IMG/VR virus record: IMGVR_UViG_2751185961_000002
Origin: a virus
Taxonomy: Duplodnaviria > Heunggongvirae > Uroviricota > Caudoviricetes
Length of the DNA: 6,455 nt
Strand: one strand, 5' to 3'
Of the stretch, positions 88 to 6,126 are shown in pieces. Every line of letters begins with the position of its first letter. The first letter of the stretch is position 1. Position numbers and translations under genes: made by a program. Under the pieces are notes generated by a model. That model saw only the letters and a program-made list of their open reading frames with translations, did no database searches and was not told the origin of the DNA.

Positions 88-645
88 TCAGTAAGTTGGC
101 AGCATTACCTGAACTGCTTTATTGGCATCAATTCGTACAATATGAGCCCATTCCTTCATCTGTTCAGTGATCAGGCCTTTTTTGTAAATCATCTGAATAC
201 GTTGCGACAGCGATTCTTTTCCTGCTTCATCGCCGAGCAGTTTTTTCGTGGAGATATCGAGGACTCTGCGACAAAGAATAACCACTGTGTCGTACCGCCT
301 CCTCTGTAAATCCTCTTTTGCCTCAACAAAAGTACGGTCTGCAACCGGGGGCGTATATTCTGGTGCGGTAATTTTTTTGACCACAGGATAGATCTTGCGG
401 AAACGGTACTGGCTATTTCCTGAAATCAGAATATCGAGGTCTTTTTTCTGGCTTTCCGCCATGGGACCGTGATAGTGGTCTGATGGGATTTCAACAATAG
501 CAACACCTCCTCGATGACAACTTCTGCATACAAAAGCGACGTTAAAAAAAGGTGTTTTTTCAATTTGTTTTTCGGCAAATGCCTCAATAACAGCTCGCTC
601 TTTTAAACAGTGCGGGCATGTGATATCAAAGGAGACTAAACCCAT
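88..645 (-). CDS. Hypothetical protein, 185 aa: N-terminal zinc ribbon (CPHC...CRSC) plus C-terminal DUF4145-like domain; candidate defence/exclusion moron gene
   Basis: ORF 88..717; start assigned to the ATG at 645-643 (MGLVSFDITCPHC...) because a GAGGAA Shine-Dalgarno lies 4 nt upstream on the minus strand (complement of 650-655). Two CxxC pairs about 23 aa apart. The C-terminal stretch LCRRVLDISTKKLLGDEAG...KGLITEQMKEWAHIVRIDANKAV matches my memory of the DUF4145 consensus (...aRraLE...Lg...kg.i...l.ew.d.iR..GN.aaH). Domain assignment is from memory, not a search. Confidence 0.65.
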   Translation of the reverse strand: MGLVSFDITCPHCLKERAVIEAFAEKQIEKTPFFNVAFVCRSCHRGGVAIVEIPSDHYHGPMAESQKKDLDILISGNSQYRFRKIYPVVKKITAPEYTPPVADRTFVEAKEDLQRRRYDTVVILCRRVLDISTKKLLGDEAGKESLSQRIQMIYKKGLITEQMKEWAHIVRIDANKAVQVMLPTY

Positions 646-889
646 GGATATTCCTCGCGAAATTAAAGAAATTAACGAAATCATTGAGGTTACTGATCGC
701 CCCGAGTTTACCCTCATGCGTCGTTATGAAACAGGAACCGACGAACAAAAATACATCATGGTTACAGCATTGGCTGTGATGGCGATAGAAAGGGAGCGAA
801 GGGAAAAGGACGTAATGGTTATTCCTGAGAGAAATGATTCACCGGATTTGAGATGGCAGGAGCCGGAGTGGGATGTGGTAATCCGGTGA
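644..889 (+). CDS. Possible small acidic protein (81 aa) of unknown function; start overlaps the divergent start of the 88..645 gene
   Basis: ATG at 644-646 preceded by AAGGAG (629-634) with 9-nt spacing; open to TGA at 887-889; sequence MDIPREIKEINEIIEVTDRPEFTLMRRYETGTDEQKY... No recognised family. May be spurious. Confidence 0.25.
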   Translation: MDIPREIKEINEIIEVTDRPEFTLMRRYETGTDEQKYIMVTALAVMAIERERREKDVMVIPERNDSPDLRWQEPEWDVVIR

Positions 890-1583: not shown

Positions 1584-1613
1584 TTGACAAAAATAGGTAT
1601 CCGGGATTATATT
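1584..1613 (+). promoter_or_regulatory. Candidate plus-strand sigma70 promoter, divergent from the higBA promoter: -35 TTGACA (1584-1589), 18-nt spacer, -10 TATATT (1608-1613)
   Basis: Perfect -35 hexamer and 5/6 -10 hexamer; predicted start near 1620, about 80 nt upstream of an intrinsic terminator. Confidence 0.4.
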
Positions 1614-1676
1614 CACCGCACGCCAGCAAAATCTGGCGTCGGGATTAGGAACCCCGGATATTCAACCGCGACAGAC

Positions 1677-1699
1677 ACACGCCGCGAGCGTGTTTTTTA
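1677..1699 (+). terminator. Rho-independent terminator (tR2-like position, or terminator of a short leader RNA)
   Basis: Stem ACACGC (1677-1682) / GCGTGT (1688-1693), loop CGCGA, followed by TTTTTTATT. Confidence 0.55.
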
Positions 1700-1863
1700 T
1701 TGTCGTATGCACACGCACATCTGAATTATGGTGGGGCGTATGGGGCAGCCGAAAGGCTGGCCGGTTGGTTGATCCGGTAGTTCCTAACCCTGTACGTCTC
1801 GCCACCCGATGATTAGGAACCTGACGGTGGTGAATGAAAAACTCATCAACCGGAGGCGTCACT

Positions 1864-2589: not shown

Positions 2590-3000
2590 ATGAACCAGAC
2601 TATCTTCCTCCGAAGTAAGCAGCAGCAACAATTCGCCATTAACGCCATCCTTGCAACAACTCTCGATAAAGACAAACCCGTTACGATCCGTATCACCGAT
2701 TACAAGCGTAATCTCGCTCAAAATGCAAAATTTCACGCGATGGTCGCTGATATATCCCGCCAGGTTAAGTGGTGCGGCAGGTGGCTAAAACCAGAACAGT
2801 GGAAAGTTTTGTTAATCAGCGGTCATGCCGTGGCGACAAAACAGGAAGCTGATGTTTTGCCAGGTCTTGAAGGTGAATACGTCAATATCCGCGAAAGCAG
2901 TGCGCAGATGAGCGTGAAGCGTATGGCAAGCCTGATTGAGTACACAACTTCCTGGGCTGTGGATCAGGGTGTCAGATTTACCGACAGGAGGTATGAATGA
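2590..3000 (+). CDS. ninB: NinB (Orf-family recombination mediator), 136 aa
   Basis: GAGGGAA SD before ATG 2590. Matches lambda NinB as I recall it (e.g. ...[34 protein letters not shown]... versus lambda ...RSLDQNRKLWACLGDVSRQVEWHGRWLDAESWKC...). Confidence 0.9.
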
Positions 3001-3188
3001 GACGACAGCGACGAAGCATCACCGATATCGTCTGTGAAAACTGCAATTACCTTCCAACCAAACGCTCCCGAAATAAACCCAGGCCAGTCCCCAAAGAATC
3101 TGATGTTAAAACCTTCAACTATACGGCTCACCTGTGGGATATCCGGTGGCTAAGGCGTCGAGCAAGATTTAATTGTCACTCCGGATAG
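2997..3188 (+). CDS. ninE: NinE, 63 aa
   Basis: [56 protein letters not shown]... is nearly identical to lambda NinE as I recall it; start overlaps the ninB stop (ATGA). Confidence 0.9.
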
Positions 3189-3208
3189 CCTACTGCATGA
3201 GGAATAAG

Positions 3209-3502
3209 ATGATGACAAACCTACGCAAAGAAGCGCGCGGCAGAGAATGCCAGGTACGGATTTATGGCGTATGCAATGGCAACCCTGAAACTACAGTTCT
3301 GGCGCATTACCGAATGGCTGGAATTTGCGGAACGGGAACAAAGCCAGATGATCTGTTGGCTGCATGGGCCTGTAGTGACTGCCATAATGAAATCGATCGC
3401 CGTACTCGCATTCTCGACAACAACGACGCCAGACTTTACCACCTGGAAGGCGTGATCAGGACGCTGGCGATATTGCTGAAGGAGGGGAAGATTAAGTCAT
3501 GA
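3209..3502 (+). CDS. ybcO: YbcO-like DUF1364 protein (putative nin-region nuclease), 97 aa
   Basis: Start at ATG 3209 (GAGGAA SD at 3200-3205). Sequence ...EARGRECQVRIYGVCNGNPETTVLAHYRMAGICGTGTKPDDLLAAWACSDCHNEIDRR... matches the YbcO/DUF1364 family found between ninE and rusA in DLP12-type prophages. Confidence 0.8.
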   Translation: MMTNLRKEARGRECQVRIYGVCNGNPETTVLAHYRMAGICGTGTKPDDLLAAWACSDCHNEIDRRTRILDNNDARLYHLEGVIRTLAILLKEGKIKS

Positions 3503-3861
3503 ATGAATATGAGTTTGTGCTTCCCTGGCCGCCGACGGTGAATACCTACTGGCGAAGACGGGGAAGCCAGTACTACATCAGCGATAAAGGCCAGAAATAC
3601 CGAAAAGACGTACAGCAAATCATCCGGCAACTCAGATTAGACATTTTCACTAAATCACGACTTCGCATCACAATTATTGCTGAACCACCAGATTCCCGCC
3701 GTCGCGACCTCGATAACATCCTGAAAGGTTTACTCGACTCTCTTATCCACGCCGGATTTGCGGAAGACGACGTGCAATTCGATGACATTCGCGTAATTCG
3801 CAGCGTGAAAGTGCCTGGCGGTAGAGTGGGGATAAAAATCACCGAACTGGAGAACATATGA
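3499..3861 (+). CDS. rusA: RusA Holliday-junction resolvase, 120 aa
   Basis: ...FVLPWPPTVNTYWRRRG...PDSRRRDLDNILKGLLDSLIHAGFAEDDVQFDDIRVIR... carries the RusA signature (LPWPPS.N.Y, RRRDLDN catalytic region); start overlaps the ybcO stop (ATGA). Confidence 0.9.
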   Translation: MNEYEFVLPWPPTVNTYWRRRGSQYYISDKGQKYRKDVQQIIRQLRLDIFTKSRLRITIIAEPPDSRRRDLDNILKGLLDSLIHAGFAEDDVQFDDIRVIRSVKVPGGRVGIKITELENI

Positions 3862-4058
3862 ACGCCACAATTCAAACAATACCGGAATTGCTTATCCAGG
3901 CACGAGGCAATATGACTGAAGTTTCACGAAAACTGAACTGTAATCGTGCTACGGTCAGAAAATATGTCGGTGATAAAGAAGGCAAACGGCACGCCGTCGT
4001 CAACGGTGTCCTTATGGTTCATCGTGGATGGGATAAGGGGAAAGCTACTGATGCGTGA
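3858..4058 (+). CDS. ninH: NinH, 66 aa
   Basis: ...TIPELLIQARGNMTEVSRKLNCNRATVRKYVGDKEGKRHAVVNGVLMVHRGW closely resembles lambda NinH as I recall it (...TIPDMLVEAYGNQTEVARRLKCSRGTVRKYVDDKDGKMHAIVNDVLMVHRGW...); start overlaps the rusA stop. Confidence 0.85.
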   Translation: MNATIQTIPELLIQARGNMTEVSRKLNCNRATVRKYVGDKEGKRHAVVNGVLMVHRGWDKGKATDA

Positions 4059-4293
4059 TATTCAGCAGGTGCCTGAACGCATGGCTTTATTCAGGTCGTC
4101 TGGAAAAGCGCATGAGCAGCGTAATAGCGGAGTTCATGGCGAAGAGTATATGAACAGATTATTCGAATGCTATATGAGACTGAAGCACGGAGATCGCTAT
4201 GACCTGACATGTGATGCTGACGGCTTCTACTGCCGTGAAGTTGTGAAACGAATGTTTGAAGTGTGGTGTCATTGTAAAGGATGGGGGCTGTGA
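4051..4293 (+). CDS. Small Cys-rich protein, 80 aa, unknown function; possibly a Q-related zinc-binding module
   Basis: ATG 4051 overlaps the ninH stop (ATGCGTGA); MRDIQQVPER...CYMRLKHGDRYDLTCDADGFYCREVVKRMFEVWCHCKGWGL. The N-terminus MRDIQxVxER resembles, from memory only, the start of the short 933W/DLP12-type Q antiterminators. Unverified. Confidence 0.5.
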   Translation: MRDIQQVPERMALFRSSGKAHEQRNSGVHGEEYMNRLFECYMRLKHGDRYDLTCDADGFYCREVVKRMFEVWCHCKGWGL

Positions 4294-4907
4294 TGCGGCT
4301 AACCCCAGTATTCGGCATGGTTAACTTTATTAATGATGCTCATTTCCGCCGCATATGGAGGCATCCGAAGAAAATCATTAACTCTCGTCAGAAAGCATGG
4401 GTTCACTACATGCTACAGGTATGGGGAAATGTTAACGCTGGTGATGATTCTCCTTGTGGTGCAATTAACGTTATTGGGCGACTGATGATTCGCAGTCAGT
4501 GGAGCGATGACAAAGCTAAGCAGATTGAGTCTGTTGTCATGCGTCTGTATGAAGAAGACGGACTACGTGGAGATGAACTCCATCAGAAAGCCCGAGAACT
4601 GGTCATCCCTCAGTCATCGGCAGGTAATATCATTGCTCTCGCCAAAGAATCCGATGATGCTGCTTTCGTTGAACGTGTGATGGTTGAGACCTTTCATCGT
4701 GAAAGCCCTGTCCGTGATGTAGCTATTAGGCGATATTGCAATCGCGACAGCACGCAAGATATCGCCAGGATGATTTCTCAGATAACAGGAGTTGATATTC
4801 AGTATTGCCGGAGGCGGGTCGTGTGGTGCGAGAGGGTCCTTGATTCAGAAATGTTTTATGCAATGAAGCGAGAATTGGAGAAAGAACTTCTAGTGATTGC
4901 TGGATGA
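4293..4907 (+). CDS. 204-aa protein in the Q (late antiterminator) position; function assigned by synteny only
   Basis: ATG 4293 overlaps the upstream TGA (TGATG) and follows a GGGGG SD-like run. Last gene before the candidate pR'-tR' unit, which is where Q sits in lambdoid phages. The sequence does not resemble lambda Q as I recall it, so the family is unassigned. Confidence 0.5.
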   Translation: MRLTPVFGMVNFINDAHFRRIWRHPKKIINSRQKAWVHYMLQVWGNVNAGDDSPCGAINVIGRLMIRSQWSDDKAKQIESVVMRLYEEDGLRGDELHQKARELVIPQSSAGNIIALAKESDDAAFVERVMVETFHRESPVRDVAIRRYCNRDSTQDIARMISQITGVDIQYCRRRVVWCERVLDSEMFYAMKRELEKELLVIAG

Positions 4908-4931
4908 TGCAAAATATTTTTTGTAAATGCG

Positions 4932-4960
4932 TTGCTTTCGAGAAATGAAAGTAGTATGTT
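4932..4960 (+). promoter_or_regulatory. Candidate late promoter pR': -35 TTGCTT (4932-4937), 17-nt spacer, -10 TATGTT (4955-4960)
   Basis: Position immediately downstream of the Q-position gene and about 110-130 nt upstream of a strong terminator mirrors the lambda pR'-6S RNA-tR' layout. Hexamers are only 4/6 matches. Confidence 0.35.
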
Positions 4961-5067
4961 TTGTGTATGCTCGGAGCAAAAGCGCACTGAGAAGCGAAAG
5001 AGAAATCCTGATTTACCTCGGTCGTCGATAATATTTAGGATCGGCATACTGGCTAGATTAGGTAAAG

Positions 5068-5098
5068 GCCTCGGCAGAAATGTCGGGGCTTTTTGTTT
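5068..5098 (+). terminator. tR'-like rho-independent terminator
   Basis: Stem GCCTCGGC (5068-5075) / GTCGGGGC (5082-5089), two G-U pairs, loop AGAAAT, then TTTTTGTTT. The following GCACAACAGGTAAGAGCATTGA matches my memory of the sequence just downstream of lambda tR'. Confidence 0.7.
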
Positions 5099-5171
5099 GC
5101 ACAACAGGTAAGAGCATTGAACCCGCAGACCTCGTGGAATTGGTGAAAGGTGTGCGCAGTGCTCTTATCGT

Positions 5172-5298
5172 TGTGGTGAAGCTCAATGGCGAGCTAGCAG
5201 ACAGGCGACTGTGAAAATACTAGTCATGTAGCGGATCGCCGCGCGTATTGTAATCGGCAGCGCACCGATGGGAGCTGGTTCGATTCCGGCCGCCACAA
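5172..5298 (+). ncRNA. tRNA-like element in the late leader (atypical; probably a degenerate tRNA or tRNA-derived structure, not a canonical tRNA)
   Basis: Canonical T-arm GCTGG-TTCGATT-CCGGC (5274-5290); perfect 5-bp anticodon-like stem ATCGG/CCGAT (5253-5257 / 5265-5269) with 7-nt loop CAGCGCA (no U33); acceptor-like pairing TGTAGCG (5227-5233) / CGCCACA (5291-5297) with one mismatch; no D-arm; no encoded CCA. Enclosed by a longer stem GTTGTGGTG (5170-5178) / CGCCACAAT (5291-5299). Confidence 0.35.
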
Positions 5299-5417
5299 TC
5301 CAAACTGAGCCGTAGCCTCTGGGTGTCCTGAATTCATCAGTGATAGTTACGCTGCGGCCTTCTACATACGATTTTTGTGAAAAGCGGGTGGCAAGAGGCT
5401 GCGAAATTTTTAAATAC

Positions 5418-5637
5418 CTCACAATTCCACAGCTTGATGATTGTCTGGCTGCCGGAGAATTTGTTAAAAATTACATCGCGTGGTGAATCCCCCTCAGCGG
5501 CGGGGCATCTGGCAAAGTGTATGATCCAGCGAACATGCAAATTCAGTAGCCAGGCTGAATTTACCGGGAGGCACCTGGCACCATGCGACAGACAGAAATT
5601 AGGCTATACTTCAGCCCCTCTCCGGAGGGGCTTTTCT
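5418..5637 (+). repeat. Late-leader repeat unit A (about 220 nt), ending in an intrinsic terminator
   Basis: Shares with unit C the blocks CTCACAATTC, ATTGTCTGGC, TTTGTTAAAAA, TGGTGAATCCCC...GGGGCAT, ACCGGGAGGCACC.GGCACCATGC and the terminator CAGCCCCTCTCCGGAGGGGCTTT. Terminator stem GCCCCTC (5614-5620) / GAGGGGC (5625-5631), loop TCCG, then TTTTCT. Confidence 0.6.
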
Positions 5638-5689
5638 GTGCAGGATGTATCACAGTTTCCTGAATTCTGAGTACTGTCCTGTTACTCAG

Positions 5690-5849
5690 GGTGCTATATT
5701 TTCTGACGTGATGAAAGTCTGCCGGAAGGCGGAACGTATCGGAAATGACCCAGTAGAGAAAACGTTGACTCAGATACCGATGCTGAGTTACCGGGAAACC
5801 GGCATCACATGACCGCTATCCTTCCAGGCTCGCTCCGGCGGGCCTTTTT
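5690..5849 (+). repeat. Late-leader repeat unit B (diverged or partial copy), ending in an intrinsic terminator
   Basis: CTGAGTTACCGGGAAACCGGCATCACATGACC aligns with CTGAATTTACCGGGAGGCACCTGGCACCATGCGAC of unit A. Terminator stem GGCTCGC (5827-5833) / GCGGGCC (5838-5844), same TCCG loop, then TTTTT. The 5' boundary is approximate. Confidence 0.45.
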
Positions 5850-5886
5850 ACTGCAGAAAACAGTTTTCCCGTAAAATGCCACGTTA

Positions 5887-6119
5887 CTCACAATTCAGGC
5901 TGGCGATTATTGTCTGGCCAGCGGGAAGTTTGTTAAAAAAATATGGCATGGTGAATCCCCTGTGCGGAGGGGCATATCAGCGACAGGTGTTTGGTCACAC
6001 CCCTTATCCTTTCTGGTGCGGGTTCAGGTGCTGATACTGAACTCACCGGGAGGCACCCGGCACCATGCATGAACGGTACATAGCGCTACTCTCCAGCCCC
6101 TCTCCGGAGGGGCTTTCTT
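5887..6119 (+). repeat. Late-leader repeat unit C (about 233 nt), ending in an intrinsic terminator
   Basis: Same conserved blocks as unit A. Terminator stem GCCCCTC (6096-6102) / GAGGGGC (6107-6113), loop TCCG, then TTTCTT. Confidence 0.6.
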
Positions 6120-6126
6120 GTTGGAT

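Follow-up and report, generated by a model that had tools for sequence, protein, structure and literature searches.

The DNA analyzed here, a stretch of 6,455 nucleotides referred to throughout as the window, is a tailed-phage record (Caudoviricetes; IMG/VR IMGVR_UViG_2751185961_000002) and represents a lambdoid prophage of Escherichia coli: positions 3858-5110 share 99.8% identity with Escherichia phage PhiR5_2 and with 18 complete E. coli chromosomes. On the + strand, its nin region runs NinB-NinE-YbcO-RusA-NinH and continues into two open reading frames (ORFs) of 80 and 204 amino acids (aa), ORF80 and ORF204, beyond which lie a promoter-like site and an intrinsic terminator. A first-pass annotation, made from the letters of the window, had placed these ORFs (4051-4293 and 4293-4907) in the slot that lambdoid phages reserve for the late-gene antiterminator Q, and we find the coordinates, the slot and the downstream promoter and terminator to be as it described. 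The ATG of ORF80 at 4051 overlaps the 3' end of ninH, and the stop of ORF80 overlaps the start of ORF204 as TGATG. The features on which the argument turns are these:

3858-4058, + strand: ninH, the final gene of the nin region (PF06322 Phage_NinH, 3.2e-29; RefSeq 'protein ninH').
4051 (ATG) to 4291-4293 (TGA), + strand: ORF80, 80 aa, from translation.
4051-4088, + strand: 5' remnant, about 10-12 codons, of a displaced Q gene of the 933W/Q21 family, with the junction at about 4084-4088.
4150-4293, + strand: core 47-aa gene, PHROG 3871; RefSeq has a coding sequence (CDS), WP_032155250, at the equivalent position, and the stop overlaps the ORF204 ATG.
4293 (ATG) to 4905-4907 (TGA), + strand: ORF204, 204 aa, candidate late antiterminator with the fold of phage 21 Q (Q21), of a DUF1133-related branch.
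4911-4928, + strand: A/T-rich element AAAATATTTTTTGTAAAT, 5' of the -35 hexamer; the class-A cassettes defined below have a similar AAATATTTT(C/G)TAAAT.
4932-4960, + strand: candidate pR', read from the sequence as -35 TTGCTT (4932-4937), a 17-nt spacer and -10 TATGTT (4955-4960).
4942-4952, + strand: candidate binding element for Q, GAAATGAAAGT, within the pR' spacer (about -25 to -15 of the predicted start); conserved in class A.
4966-4974, + strand: pause candidate TATGCTCGG, with a -10-like TATGCT at 4966-4971, about -1 to +5.
4969-4994, + strand: leader palindrome GCTCGG...CTGAG(C), immediately 3' of TATGCT (alignment A6, 36 cassettes).
5068-5098, + strand: intrinsic terminator tR', with a 9-bp GC-rich stem (5068-5089), a GAAA loop and a T-run (5090-5098; TTTTTGTTT), from RNA folds.

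RefSeq names ORF204 'hypothetical protein'. In PHROGs it matches phrog_753, 'anti-termination protein Q-like' (3.3e-68), a label also carried by its homologues in the RefSeq phages UPF_BP1, ENT47670, ST64B and ZF40. A word-indexed search returned 214 homologues, mostly of 200-207 aa and spread over the Enterobacterales, and a family-profile search of 1.84 billion cluster representatives returned only 41 members, showing that the family is narrow. The absence of any likeness to lambda Q, remarked upon at first pass, holds for both sequence and fold. The HMMER check proposed there, run against the Q-family model PF06530, gave no match for ORF204 or ORF80 (for ORF204 at E up to 0.1, the gathering score not being reached), and among 31 ORF204-family homologues it gave weak matches in four, the best at E 0.032. 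Against PF06576 (DUF1133), ORF204 and about 30 aligned homologues had no match at E up to 1.

Links to both models run through relatives. Three proteins recovered by the family profile, P0147, P0158 and P0161, pass the PF06576 gathering score (26-33 bits against a cutoff of 23.1); P0147 matches the ORF204 family profile at E 1.7e-45, and P0161 also passes PF06530 (36.2 bits, cutoff 26). The WGAW motif typical of Q21 and of 933W-type Q is present in P0158 and P0161, and a further homologue, P0006, is named 'DUF1133 family protein' in UniRef. An extended-family hidden Markov model (HMM) scores all 120 of the PF06530 Q proteins retrieved, at up to 18.4 bits, while 2400 shuffled decoys reach at most 8.8 bits. 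Its alignment has two modules: the 'L..WG' helix at about residues 38-54 of ORF204 is set against 'LERWGAW', and residues 115-197 (AKESDDAAFVERV...RYC...QDIAR...RRRVVWCE) against the C-terminal domain of 933W-type Q (CxDDDA...DYYV.G.T...LA...). As judged by sequence, DUF1133 is the closest curated family of ORF204. Its place in the Q21 superfamily rests on a fold match and on these transitive links, ORF204 itself falling short of strict HMM membership of PF06530 or PF06576. A match to ERp29 (E ~1e-3, residues 28-100, phmmer/profile against PDB sequences) was set aside as chance, as the fold searches do not list it. P0158 and P0161, which are metagenomic and 366-379 aa long, have an architecture unusual for a Q relative, in which an N-terminal HNH_3 endonuclease is fused to a C-terminal Q-like domain that matches DUF1133 and PF06530; P0161 has a weak, sub-threshold AP2 match as well.

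The second check proposed at first pass, structure prediction, points to Q21. We built an AlphaFold model of ORF204 from a 31-sequence alignment; it is all-helical, with a mean predicted local distance difference test (pLDDT) score of 76, and its top ten Foldseek matches in the PDB are all Q21 chains (probability 0.97-1.00, target-normalised template modelling score 0.49-0.66). The predicted structure has the helical fold of Q21, with an N-terminal helix packed on a helix-turn-[loop]-helix domain that resembles region 4 of sigma factors (sigma-R4). Q21 came out ahead of every sigma domain by 4 Z units, with a match over 114 residues, and the alignment of ORF204 begins at Q21 residue 8. Between the WG helix and the C-terminal domain, ORF204 has about 45-60 residues more than Q21 or 933W-type Q. 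This stretch holds an invariant IGRLMIR motif and the low-confidence segments 52-70 and 106-117, and we infer that it is an enlarged version of the segment from which Q21 forms its nozzle.

If ORF204 acts as a Q protein, then its gene should be followed by a cis-acting cassette. We fetched 51 loci from other species and, together with annotated loci, searched 57 for a terminator and examined 54 cassette windows. In these 54 Enterobacterales loci, a conserved cassette begins 50-83 nt past the stop of the ORF204 homologue. Class-A cassettes, to which the window belongs, read TTGnnn, 16-17 nt, TATATT, 5-6 nt, TATGCTCGG(G)AGCAAAAGCGAAC(T)GAGC; those of class B have a different -35 region. TATGCTCGG occurs exactly in 27 of the 54 cassette windows and with at most one mismatch in 42; among 2556 control windows taken from these loci, the counts are 1 and 21. 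In the window, transcription is predicted to start near A4967. Within TATGCT, A2, G4 and T6 are invariant in all 36 distinct cassettes of alignment A6. The sigma-70 region 2 reads the -11A and -7T of a -10 element most specifically, and we take A2 and T6 to be these two positions; their invariance fits a sigma-dependent pause element. The A/T-rich element at 4911-4928 may, by its sequence, be an UP element or a second protein site. Downstream, a strong hairpin with a T-run is found in 55 of the 57 loci searched, at 53-434 nt from the stop and mostly at 100-280 nt. The predicted 133-nt transcript of the window folds with z = -3.45, and Rfam has no family over 4900-5100.

The promoter spacer is the part of the cassette that varies. 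Its motifs fall into classes A (GAGAAATGAAAGT-like), B (AAAGGGCA...CCTGG) and C (CGCCTAAAAAC), and the motif is replaced by clade while the pause element and leader stay constant over all three classes. Spacer class follows the protein: 23 of the 24 class-B loci form one protein cluster that holds no other class, and all five class-C loci belong to another. Co-segregation of this kind is what co-evolution of a Q protein with its binding element would be expected to give. PhiR12_3, which encodes a 933W-type Q, has a different cassette downstream, without TATGCTCGG, indicating that the ORF204-type cassette is specific to the ORF204 family. For phage 21, PMC6606751 places the Q-binding element between -35 and -10, its subsites being near -21 and -13, and puts a -10-like element in the initial transcribed region. 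The geometry of the window parallels that of published Q cassettes, since its spacer motif GAAATGAAAGT lies at about -25 to -15 and its -10-like element at the start of the transcript.

The leader, TATGCTCGG followed by the palindrome, is near-invariant from Escherichia to Xenorhabdus and Proteus. In a manual test, which is suggestive only, 68.7% of palindrome cells are paired as compared to 8-37% in slid controls, with six compensatory cells. The compensatory variants include C-G to A-U at two loci (L039 and L055) and C-G to U-A at a third (L036); in the window itself, the outermost pair is broken (GAGA for GAGC). RNAalifold returned no consensus structure for the leader.

Gene order beyond the cassette has the form expected of a Q module. 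Strain JNEC-KY204 matches the window at 99.9% identity in this region. It has no CDS in the 1.45 kb that follow ORF204; beyond that gap, all on the same strand, are genes for an esterase, DUF1378, DUF826, holin, lysozyme and a lysis protein. P22-like phage UPF_BP1 carries the ORF204 homologue in place of gene 23, with holin and endolysin as the next genes downstream, and the CE10 prophage is arranged as RusA, the 47-aa ORF, the 204-aa ORF (with the TGATG overlap kept) and holin. Thus, same-strand lysis genes lie downstream of ORF204 or its homologue in 3/3 annotated loci examined, and the window, read as sequence, appears to have the Q-type layout of ORF204 directly 5' of a promoter, a -10-like element, a terminator and same-strand late genes.

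Collectively, our data make it very probable that ORF204 is the prophage's Q-type late-gene antiterminator and a divergent member of the structural superfamily of phage 21 Q. Fold match, family links, gene position and conservation of the cis cassette were each observed for ORF204 and its relatives. DNA binding, pausing, loading and read-through are modeled on Q21 and lambda Q, as follows. RNA polymerase would initiate at the TTGCTT-17-TATGTT promoter just 3' of ORF204, and sigma-70 would re-bind the -10-like TATGCT at about +1, causing the polymerase to pause. ORF204, bound at the spacer candidate GAAATGAAAGT, would load onto the paused polymerase (4932-4974), and the modified polymerase would then read through the terminator at 5068-5098 into the STnc100 repeats described below and the esterase, holin, lysozyme and spanin genes. 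A divergent Q family was among the readings offered at first pass, and phrog_753, the predicted Q21 fold and the conserved cassette all speak for it.

Several results pull in the other direction. Pfam, NCBIfam and PADLOC scans give no Q-family or other match for ORF204 or ORF80, and for ORF204 the Pfam and NCBIfam results tell against a Q identity. An hhalign comparison of the ORF204 family with a shallow 933W-Q/PF06530 alignment is not significant (E 0.36), and the family profile reaches Q21 among PDB sequences only at E 1.2. The model drops below a pLDDT of 50 at residues 52-70 and 106-117, and generic promoter and terminator scans missed both proposed sites. The co-segregation of spacer class with protein clade could be simple linkage, not co-evolution of binding specificity. 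Finally, we found no experimental data on any member of the ORF204 family.

A megablast search matches window positions 3914-4084 to ninH and the start of the gene for 'antitermination protein Q' in PhiR12_3, and the first ten residues of ORF80, MRDIQQVPER, correspond to MRDIQQVLER of the 933W-type Q of that phage (the remnant was compared with MRDIQQVLERWGAW). The 'Q-like N-terminus' noted in the first-pass annotation is thus real. The DNA similarity to PhiR12_3 that runs in from ninH ends at about 4084-4088, ahead of the WGAW motif; ORF80 has no PF06530 match, and its similarity to 933W-type Q is confined to residues 1-10. While phrog_17609 spans the whole of ORF80, residues 34-77 match phrog_3871, and residues 34-80 constitute a separate family of 46-49-aa proteins. 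The 80-aa form is restricted to near-identical relatives, and the remaining homologues are all of 46-49 aa. In between, some 23 codons bear a loose by-eye resemblance to the untranslated leader of the small gene elsewhere. ORF80 is, on this sequence evidence, a chimera of a Q remnant, about 23 read-through leader codons and an unrelated 47-aa gene. The 80-aa reading frame of the first-pass annotation exists, then, but RefSeq annotates only the 47 aa of 4150-4293. The near-identical relative P0122 has Leu at the internal Met of ORF80, and the long 80-aa form may for that reason well be translated from the ninH-coupled ATG.

A module exchange would account for this arrangement. The small gene, ORF204 and the pR'-tR' cassette would together have replaced a 933W-type Q by recombination just inside the Q start, leaving the old start and ten codons fused in frame to the 47-aa gene and its leader, which gives ORF80.

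The Cys/His clusters reported for ORF80 are present in this copy and are not a conserved motif. Among 18 homologues in the 47-aa family, C42 is the sole invariant residue of this set; C28 gives way to A, G or V, C40 to R or Y and H41 to D or E. C24 of the 47-aa gene (the 'TCD' Cys, codon 4219-4221) is Arg in most homologues (DLTCD vs DLTRD), including relatives that are 98-99% identical, so that part of the 'Cys-rich' look of ORF80 comes from a single substitution. We rejected a zinc-binding reading of ORF80 or the 47-aa gene, as the 18 homologues do not share three or four conserved ligands. An AlphaFold2 model of the 47-aa protein is a helix-hairpin-helix (pLDDT 88.8) without a fold match in the PDB, and the family carries no function annotation. 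The simplest reading is an accessory gene of the 'moron' type.

Might the small protein nonetheless be an obligate partner of Q? In such an arrangement, also raised at first pass, the 47- or 80-aa protein would be a cofactor, chaperone or modulator of ORF204, held in stoichiometry by translational coupling. The TGATG overlap of the window and the CE10 prophage agrees with coupling, and the small gene does lie 5' of some ORF204 homologues, immediately so in Escherichia and Intestinirhabdus and at about 150-210 bp in two Serratia species (by locus, L007 immediately, L014 at about 150 bp and L016 at about 210 bp with a weaker match). However, this accounts for only 3/51 loci from other species; the gene is missing upstream of the homologue in the other 48, and from UPF_BP1. 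In phiP27 and Stx2a_WGPS2, it adjoins xis in the early-left region, far from Q and without ORF204, and several other Shiga toxin (Stx) phages match the same DNA. With no fold match or family annotation to suggest a role, an obligate partnership seems very unlikely to us. In those few phages that encode it, the 47-aa protein might still act as a modulator of Q.

A further alternative retains the sigma-R4-like domain of ORF204 and changes its function, making it, in place of an antiterminator, a transcription activator of the late promoter or an alternative factor for initiation there. We regard this as very unlikely: the lead of Q21 over every sigma domain in the fold comparison argues against it, as does the strong terminator that stands between the promoter and the same-strand late genes at nearly all loci, and the promoter has good sigma-70 hexamers with an invariant -10-like repeat at the start, which is the layout of a Q-type promoter. 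Lastly, the suggestion that ORF80 and ORF204 are the N- and C-terminal parts of one ancestral Q, which their adjacency and overlap and the identical or near-identical first ten residues of ORF80 and 933W-type Q might seem to favor, is hardly credible, as those ten residues are all that derives from Q and the WGAW of the real Q was lost at the junction, ORF204 alone has both Q21-family modules (its own N-terminal WG helix and the sigma-R4-like C-terminal domain), and 48/51 loci have a full-length homologue of about 204 aa on its own.

Within the interpretation of ORF204 as a Q21-type antiterminator, it is conceivable, if doubtful, that the family is a functionally distinct branch of the superfamily, with an inter-module segment longer by about 45-60 aa and a loading site that includes the near-invariant leader. 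If the leader is an RNA hairpin or a second DNA site needed for loading, then it would be an extra cis requirement, one not described for lambda Q, Q21 or Q82.

As no Pfam or NCBIfam model detects ORF204 and RefSeq calls it 'hypothetical', prophages that carry it seem to have no Q gene; recognizing it puts a name to the late-gene switch in Enterobacterales prophages. ORF204 occurs in 35 of 5426 complete E. coli genomes and in prophages of Salmonella, Klebsiella, Enterobacter, Pantoea, Erwinia, Serratia, Xenorhabdus and Proteus. The candidate qut site, very well conserved and with three apparent specificity classes, could be used to ask how proteins with the Q21 fold read DNA. ORF80, in turn, illustrates that a mosaic junction falling within the first codons of a gene can yield a misleading 'Q-like' chimeric ORF.

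The genes that precede ninH in the window are, from Pfam matches:

1834-2535, + strand: antirepressor with ORF6N/P22_AR_C.
2590-3000, + strand: NinB.
2997-3188, + strand: NinE.
3173-3502, + strand: YbcO.
3499-3861, + strand: RusA.

Several further observations concern the flanks of the late switch. Past tR', in the stretch without a CDS that leads up to the late genes, are three tandem copies of the small RNA STnc100 (RF02076) on the + strand, at 5448-5641, 5677-5852 and 5917-6125; two score 139.9 and 129.8 bits, and the middle copy, at 30 bits, is under the gathering score. Unless they have promoters of their own, these copies would need Q-modified polymerase for their transcription. At about 5255-5300 (+ strand), the sequence resembles a tRNA T-arm and 3' acceptor (GGTTCGATTCCGGCCGCCAC); ARAGORN calls no tRNA downstream, and Rfam has no tRNA match at these positions. 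Some Stx-type phages carry tRNA genes after pR', and the element may be a leftover fragment of such genes. Upstream of the antirepressor, at 1607-1809 (+ strand), Rfam matches c4-a1b1 (1607-1660; 44.5 bits, slightly below the 46.7-bit gathering score), IsrK (1620-1698) and C4 antisense RNA (1724-1809), so that 1607-2535 looks like a P1/P7-style, RNA-controlled c4-ant antirepressor module within a lambdoid nin region. The PhiR5_2/RefSeq annotation places a toxin-antitoxin pair on the - strand between the replication genes and the antirepressor: the antitoxin HigA at 937-1242 and a toxin of the HigB/RelE family at 1242-~1520. The ORF at 88-717 (- strand) is named a DUF4145 domain-containing protein by RefSeq in the near-identical JNEC-KY204 and has no PADLOC match.

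Compared with known systems, ORF204 is closest in fold to Q21 (PF06530; 6P18, 6P19, 6JNX, 6JNY), with which it shares 14% identity. It exceeds Q21 (162 aa) by about 42 aa, the additional 45-60 or so residues falling where Q21 has its nozzle-forming H2 segment; in Q21, the inter-module H1-H2 linker, H2 and the H2-H3 linker refold to a nozzle in the RNA-exit channel. The candidate site GAAATGAAAGT bears no relation to the TGAGCA direct repeat of Q21. DUF1133 is the nearest curated family, yet ORF204 and its 30 aligned homologues are not matched by PF06576; DUF1133 proteins of Stx phages have been labeled 'Q antiterminator (HHPred)' (PMC8136144). With lambda Q and Q82, ORF204 has in common its genome position and presumed function, and the geometry is lambda-like, in that the spacer of the promoter holds a binding element and a pause element follows at about +1 to +6, but there is no match in sequence or fold. 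The Cys motif that we take to form the zinc site of lambda Q has no conserved equivalent in ORF204. AlpA of Pseudomonas aeruginosa (7XYB) resembles ORF204 much more weakly than Q21 does, and its genomic context differs. In PMC12315714, the numbering of Q 'types' is credited to Grose & Casjens 2014, and the ORF204 family may already have such a number. A 'Q-like' label for the family already exists in PHROGs, and its presumed function is ordinary lambdoid late-gene regulation; to this we add the structural evidence for the Q21 superfamily, the enlarged inter-module segment, a cassette with three spacer classes and the explanation of the chimeric ORF.

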